A DNA stretch of 2,111 bases. Origin: Escherichia phage ECO95 1-6-1. The DNA is taken from the sequence record OR845556.1; one strand, written 5' to 3'. Positions 1,719 through 1,811 of this stretch are shown here, one piece after another (positions within the stretch are counted from its first letter, which is position 1; the number at the start of each line of letters is the position of its first letter). Below the pieces are notes generated by a model that was given only the letters and a program-made list of their open reading frames with translations, was not told the DNA's origin and ran no database searches. Position numbers and translations under genes: made by a program.

Positions 1719-1811
1719 TCACTGCCCGCTTTCCAGTCGGGAAACCTGTCGTGCCAGCTGCATTAATGAAGGCGCCAACGCGCGGGGAGAGGCGGTTTGC
1801 GTATTGGGCGC
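1719..1811 (-). pseudogene. lacI: lacI 3'-terminal remnant (last ~30 codons of the lac repressor gene, carried over in pUC-type vectors)
   Basis: The minus strand reads ...gcgcccaatacgcaaaccgcctctccccgcgcgttggcgccttcattaatgcagctggcacgacaggtttcccgactggaaagcgggcagtga, ending in the lacI stop codon (tca at 1719-1721 on the plus strand). It has no start codon or upstream body, so it is a non-functional fragment. Confidence 0.8.

Follow-up and report, generated by a model that had tools for sequence, protein, structure and literature searches.

A GGCGCC restriction site in the lacI remnant of a pGEM-7Zf(+)-type vector sequence, very probably introduced by design

The palindromic hexamer GGCGCC is present at 1771-1776 of the window, the whole stretch of 2111 bases that was analyzed. 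Its position in a piece of lacI raises the question whether it belongs to the native sequence of this locus, arose there as an undesigned change, or was put in place, and in the last case for which use. The preliminary description had reported it as a NarI/KasI site introduced into the lacI remnant that separates the lac promoter from the origin, and as consistent with a unique site marking a module boundary. A search of both strands recovered the hexamer at this place and nowhere else in the window. It has the palindromic form recognized by the type II enzymes NarI, KasI, SfoI, EheI, BbeI and PluTI. Cleavage occurs at GG^CGCC with NarI, at G^GCGCC with KasI, at GGC^GCC with SfoI and EheI, which leave blunt ends, and at GGCGC^C with PluTI; the cleavage pattern of pUC19 served to deduce the GGCGCC specificity (PMC2875022). 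In dinucleotide-preserving shuffles the expected number of copies was 0.83 on average, and at least one copy was present in 117 of 200 shuffles. The presence of GGCGCC alone is thus unremarkable, and the signal rests on the comparison with reference sequences.

The hexamer in reference and public sequences

Window positions 1582-1811 were aligned with positions 366291-366520 of the E. coli K-12 MG1655 chromosome. The alignment was gapless with 3 mismatches in 230 bases, and all three fell into the first half of the hexamer, with G for T at 1771, G for C at 1772 and C for G at 1773 (window for reference). The native hexamer is TCGGCC. The same three differences from the window at 1771-1773 were found in pUC57, in a pBluescript-like plasmid and in a pGEM-type plasmid. 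The three substitutions named in the preliminary description therefore agree with both the chromosomal and the vector alignments, and none of these four references has ggcgcc at this position. The sequence around the site in the window is ctgcattaatgaaGGCGCCaacgcgcgggg. With the second half, GCC, retained, GGCGCC is one of 27 possible triple substitutions.

To survey the variability at this position, public contigs from genomes, viruses and metagenomes were searched with a pattern of constant flanks around six unspecified bases (GCATTAATGAANNNNNNAACGCGCGGGG). This search returned 230 instances across 225 loci. TCGGCC was present in 226 of them, single-base variants (TCCGCC, TCTGCC and TCGACC) made up the other four, and GGCGCC was found in none of the 230. 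In the same three kinds of contig, exact-match scans for the GGCGCC variant of the locus gave no hit. When a 78-base probe was searched against plasmids, the best full-length matches were 96.2% identical, which corresponds to 3 mismatches.

Compared with the canonical sequence, the change from TCG to GGC at 1771-1773, identified by hexamer search and MG1655 alignment, creates sites for NarI, KasI, SfoI, EheI, PluTI and others (Biopython). Sites for HaeII, BanI and BsaHI are gained as well, and those for EaeI and TfiI are lost. The finding of a single GGCGCC holds for the 2111 bases of the window; the whole plasmid measures about 3 kb, and about 0.9 kb of it lies outside the window. A pGEM-type record of 3004 bp contains no GGCGCC, including its 884 bases beyond the coverage of the window, which fits the earlier description of a unique site. 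NarI cleaves single-site substrates poorly, and KasI or SfoI would therefore be favored in practice.

The MG1655 alignment also defines the surroundings of the site. The stretch at 1582-1811 (minus strand) derives from the lac region of E. coli, comprises the lacZ start, the lac promoter/operator and the lacI end, and is identical to MG1655 366291-366520 save for 1771-1773. Within it, the lacI 3' remnant (1719-1811, minus strand) consists of the last 30 codons and the stop codon. The coding sequence of lacI (b0345) ends at 366428 in MG1655, which corresponds to window position 1719, and the stop codon occupies 1719-1721. Chromosomal homology stops at 1811, between GGGCGC and TCTTCC, where the lac fragment is joined to an origin segment derived from pBR322 (1811/1812). 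The remnant is thus collinear with the end of lacI and truncated at a HaeII-type junction with the origin segment. The lac promoter (1641-1670, minus strand) consists of TTTACA, an 18-base spacer and TATGTT; it is wild type and unchanged relative to pUC57. The location first given for the hexamer, within the lacI 3' remnant and flanked by the lac promoter on one side and the origin segment, from 1812 onward, on the other, was confirmed by these coordinates.

Translation of the lacI remnant in the window reads APNTQTASPRALAPSLMQLARQVSRLESGQ followed by the stop, and the canonical ...ALADSL... has become ...ALAPSL.... At the codon level the edit replaces Asp by Pro and alters one Ala codon silently. 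The remnant has neither a start codon nor the N-terminal domain, and the other approximately 330 codons are missing. Because this truncated 30-codon fragment cannot make LacI, the edit has no consequence for LacI, and the earlier statement that there should be no coding consequence stands. Only mechanical open reading frames of 22-61 amino acids overlap the site. A promoter and terminator scan gave the same calls for the window and pUC57, with the lac promoter as the only promoter and no signal gained or lost, and an Rfam scan of the window detected no RNA family. No coding or promoter effect of the GGCGCC edit is expected.

A pGEM-7Zf(+)-type backbone

The backbone of the window is composed of bla, an f1 origin segment, lacZ-alpha, the lac promoter, the 93-bp lacI remnant and the pUC origin. 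The bla gene is of the TEM-116 type and occupies 1-616 on the minus strand, with the start codon at 614-616. The lacZ-alpha open reading frame has 121 codons and contains a T7 promoter, the polylinker and an SP6 promoter. From the pUC origin, the first 300 bases are inside the window. Whole-window megablast against plasmids returned thousands of bla/ColE1-type records, a handful of them vector-derived at 96-99% identity.

The polylinker contains sites for ApaI, AatII, SphI, XbaI, XhoI, EcoRI, KpnI, SmaI and BstBI, followed by ClaI, HindIII, BamHI, EcoRV, (MluI) BstXI and NsiI. This is presumably the order of pGEM-7Zf(+), except that EcoRV stands in for SacI, and a pGEM-type record (NZ_CP124361.1) has GAGCTC where the window has GATATC. 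All elements of a pGEM-7Zf(+)-type vector, i.e. the ApaI to NsiI polylinker flanked by T7 and SP6 promoters, the f1 segment, bla and the pUC origin, were found. An authentic pGEM-7Zf(+) polylinker was sought in the plasmid collection, and none was present there. The nearest pGEM record is pGEM-T/5Zf-like and contains assembly errors, and it was used for shared backbone positions only. Judged by its sequence, the window represents part of a laboratory cloning vector of the pGEM-7Zf(+) type, with 28 substitutions. The layout is that of pGEM-7Zf(+) (Promega) and of the pUC/pGEM family. The window differs from pGEM-7Zf(+) by the 28 substitutions, among them those that create GGCGCC and seven other six-cutter sites, those that abolish SacI and DraIII, and nine isolated point changes.

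The lacI-remnant/pUC backbone was also observed in public genome, plasmid and metagenome records of diverse organisms (NZ_CP124361.1 and many loci between L004 and L189). Carriers of the backbone segment were assigned to Streptomyces, Moritella and Bacillus, to 'plasmids' from the giant-panda gut and to a 3-kb plasmid of wastewater E. coli. Such public records clearly stem from laboratory plasmids or from contamination by cloning vectors.

Companion sites and their spacing

Among the 28 substitutions relative to canonical backbones, each multi-base cluster yields a palindromic six-cutter site that is absent from the reverted sequence. Two of the introduced sites are in bla and silent. MfeI (CAATTG) is at 2-7, where the alignments begin at base 3 and the canonical base at position 2 is taken from the known bla sequence. 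HpaI (GTTAAC, blunt) is at 24-29 in two Leu codons. An NdeI site (CATATG) was introduced at 724-729, where it separates the promoter region of bla from the f1 segment. In the f1 region, the single substitution G to A at 1026 creates SnaBI (TACGTA, blunt) at 1021-1026 and removes the sole DraIII site of this segment (CACNNNGTG, 1021-1027). Both introduced sites in lacZ-alpha alter the 121-codon peptide. HincII (GTTGAC, blunt) at 1363-1368 changes Thr78 to Asn; EcoRV (GATATC, blunt) at 1521-1526 is written exactly over the SacI site (GAGCTC) of the polylinker and changes Ala25 to Tyr, and the frame stays open.

In the pUC origin, five substitutions (GCATCA to AGCGCT) create AfeI/Eco47III (AGCGCT, blunt) at 2021-2026. 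The site lies in the primer region of RNA II, adjoining the C6/G6 run and about 30-35 nt upstream of the point where RNA switches to DNA. The terminal primer hairpin is predicted to be kept in a rearranged and weaker form, with -34.8 kcal/mol compared with -37.0 kcal/mol in pUC57. The AfeI edit could affect copy number.

Four of the introduced sites are regularly spaced. SnaBI (1021), EcoRV (1521), GGCGCC (1771) and AfeI (2021) all start at 21 modulo 250, and the GGCGCC site is 250 bp from EcoRV, 250 bp from AfeI and 750 bp from SnaBI. Blunt-cutting enzymes exist for all four (SnaBI, EcoRV, SfoI/EheI and AfeI). From blunt cut to blunt cut, the distances are 250 bp for EcoRV-SfoI and SfoI-AfeI, 500 bp for SnaBI-EcoRV, 750 bp for SnaBI-SfoI and 1000 bp for SnaBI-AfeI. 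In a comparison with 200,000 random sets of nine positions and six round periods, 22 sets had at least four positions on a single grid of one of these periods; the test is rough because the period was noticed post hoc, but the effect is nonetheless large. The grid positions 271, 521, 771 and 1271 have no introduced site. HpaI is 3 bp off the grid, and MfeI, NdeI and HincII are entirely off it. EcoRV at 1521-1526 is likely the anchor of the grid, which would thus be tied to the polylinker, since this site covers the SacI hexamer base for base.

A natural blunt FspI site (TGCGCA) was noticed at 1272-1277, 1 bp off the empty grid position 1271. It is not unique, as a second FspI site is present at 50-55 in bla, and its closeness to the grid position is probably a coincidence.

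Besides the clusters, the window has nine isolated single-base changes, seven of them transitions. Five are in bla. On its minus strand, those at 145 and 205 are conservative missense changes (T158S and T138A, precursor numbering), and those at 305, 503 and 533 are silent, with two of the three abolishing HphI sites. Apart from these changes the β-lactamase is TEM-116-like, as in pUC vectors. In the f1 segment, T to C at 1105 creates a second XbaI site (1104-1109), which deprives the XbaI site of the polylinker of its uniqueness. With GA in front of it, the new site reads GATCTAGA, and dam methylation would block such a GA-preceded XbaI site in ordinary E. coli hosts. Further isolated changes in this segment are at 846 and 1038, and the nick-site core at about 951-980 is unaltered. 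Downstream of the origin, T to C at 1900 converts a perfect DnaA box, TTATCCACA (1899-1907), to TCATCCACA and creates a FokI site. The box thereby departs from the consensus TTWTNCACA (PMC5835720).

The edited vector was sought in several collections. No record with these edits was found by whole-window megablast or with the 78-base probe against plasmids. Scans of viral contigs for the AfeI, NdeI and EcoRV clusters revealed no carrier, nor did a comparison of 229 fetched loci with probes for every edit cluster. A literature search for a pGEM-7Zf derivative with these sites returned nothing relevant.

Design and use of the site

Taken with its companions, the hexamer is very probably a deliberately designed restriction site in a pGEM-7Zf(+)-type derivative and one of an introduced set of six-base sites. 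That the sites inside bla are silent points to design. Weighing against this reading are the gaps in the grid and the sites off it, the lack of any published or deposited vector with these edits in the searches, and the nine isolated changes, which include two missense changes in bla, the hit in the DnaA box and the second XbaI site and run counter to a clean design. In the proposed scheme, the inert lacI 3' remnant would have been rewritten at three adjacent bases, TCG to GGC. The resulting GGCGCC would serve as a passive recognition sequence, at which specific enzymes would linearize the plasmid if the site is single in the whole molecule, NarI or KasI being the options for sticky ends and SfoI or EheI those for blunt ends. 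Because all four grid sites have blunt-cutting enzymes, SfoI/EheI rather than NarI/KasI may be the intended enzyme. Pairwise digestion at the SnaBI, EcoRV, GGCGCC and AfeI sites would yield blunt-ended pieces with exact lengths of 250, 500, 750 and 1000 bp. The coordinate 1771 would have been chosen as 250 bp from EcoRV and would fall into harmless DNA by chance. We infer that the edits are deliberate, that blunt cutting is the use and that fragments of defined length are the purpose.

A more specific reading, which we put forward tentatively as somewhat short of probable, is that pGEM-7Zf(+) was converted on purpose into a 'ruler' plasmid that was never deposited, with unique blunt cutters at 250-bp steps that perhaps continue beyond the window. 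Its use for a run-off transcription ladder was considered and rejected. With the T7 +1 position at 1435, templates cut with EcoRV, SfoI and AfeI would give transcripts of 89, 339 and 589 nt, and these lengths are not round.

It is rather unlikely that the window is an in-silico design or an edited test sequence, perhaps never built, in which sites at intervals were combined with scattered point changes. The lack of any edit cluster in the collections searched and in the 229 fetched loci would fit such an origin, as would a grid that is exact to the base and edits that appear risky for a working plasmid, namely the five in the RNA II primer region, the one in the DnaA box at 1900 and the missense changes in bla and lacZ-alpha. 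However, the grid is in register with a pre-existing SacI hexamer and the bla sites are silent, which argues for thoughtful construct design, and the share of transitions among the isolated changes (7 of 9) resembles polymerase or natural error more than uniform random editing. An in-silico origin would moreover alter only the existence of the plasmid and leave the identity of the hexamer as an engineered site unaffected.

The preliminary description had suggested a unique site marking a module boundary. Such a site would have been placed to separate the lac/polylinker cassette from the origin for module swapping, and this we regard as unlikely. No inert DNA other than the remnant at 1719-1811 lies between the origin segment and the lac control region, GGCGCC is single in the window, and the NdeI site at 724-729 is similarly placed between bla and the f1 segment. 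What did not hold is the position at a boundary. The true junction, 1811/1812, is 35 bp to the right, which leaves the hexamer within the lac fragment rather than where two modules meet. Furthermore, AfeI (origin primer region), SnaBI (f1), HincII (lacZ-alpha) and HpaI and MfeI (bla) were all placed inside elements. Given the exact 250-bp grid and the location of AfeI and SnaBI within functional elements, the spacing to EcoRV and AfeI accounts for the coordinate of the hexamer better than module borders do.

The sequence is also that of the NarI frameshift-mutation hotspot (G1G2CG3CC), a motif used in mutagenesis plasmids, but there is very little probability that it was introduced for DNA-adduct mutagenesis assays. 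Such assays need the motif inside a reporter frame in order to score a -2 frameshift, and the companion sites are without any such role. A frameshift-hotspot reporter was rejected since the site is outside the 121-codon lacZ-alpha open reading frame, in a truncated lacI remnant that is not expressed. An undesigned natural polymorphism, sequencing error or spontaneous mutation is scarcely credible: single-base variants do occur at the hexamer in 4 of 230 public instances, but here three adjacent substitutions produced the one triple in 27 that completes a perfect palindrome, GGCGCC is in none of the public copies, and seven other clusters in the window give palindromic six-cutters as well.

Sites of the designed kind have well-known counterparts. 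In pUC19, a native NarI/KasI site in lacZ-alpha near NdeI is a unique backbone site that is used for cloning. The site in the window has the same recognition sequence, but it is new and lies across the polylinker from the pUC19 position, within the remnant of lacI. pGEM vectors with an f1 segment lack the native site, and no GGCGCC was found in the reverted window or in the 3004-bp pGEM-type record. In the NEB LITMUS vectors, SEVA-style plasmids and the pPSU1/2 ladder plasmids, backbone sites were added or removed by silent or harmless substitutions in order to obtain unique cutters or fragments of defined size. In contrast to these, the window uses different enzymes at 250-bp spacing instead of one that is repeated, and its sites are not module borders; no evidence was found that it belongs to the LITMUS, SEVA or pPSU1/2 series. 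Features of this kind are entirely familiar from standard vector engineering, and only this derivative is unrecorded in the collections searched.

For cutting or mapping the plasmid, the edit offers a site that is new, single in the window and placed in inert DNA. Some of the sister edits fall in functional elements, namely the primer region of the origin, the DnaA box, bla and lacZ-alpha, and could influence how the plasmid performs. The biological weight of the hexamer itself is very small: it marks the window as synthetic vector DNA, which is of use for flagging the sequence as engineered or as contamination.
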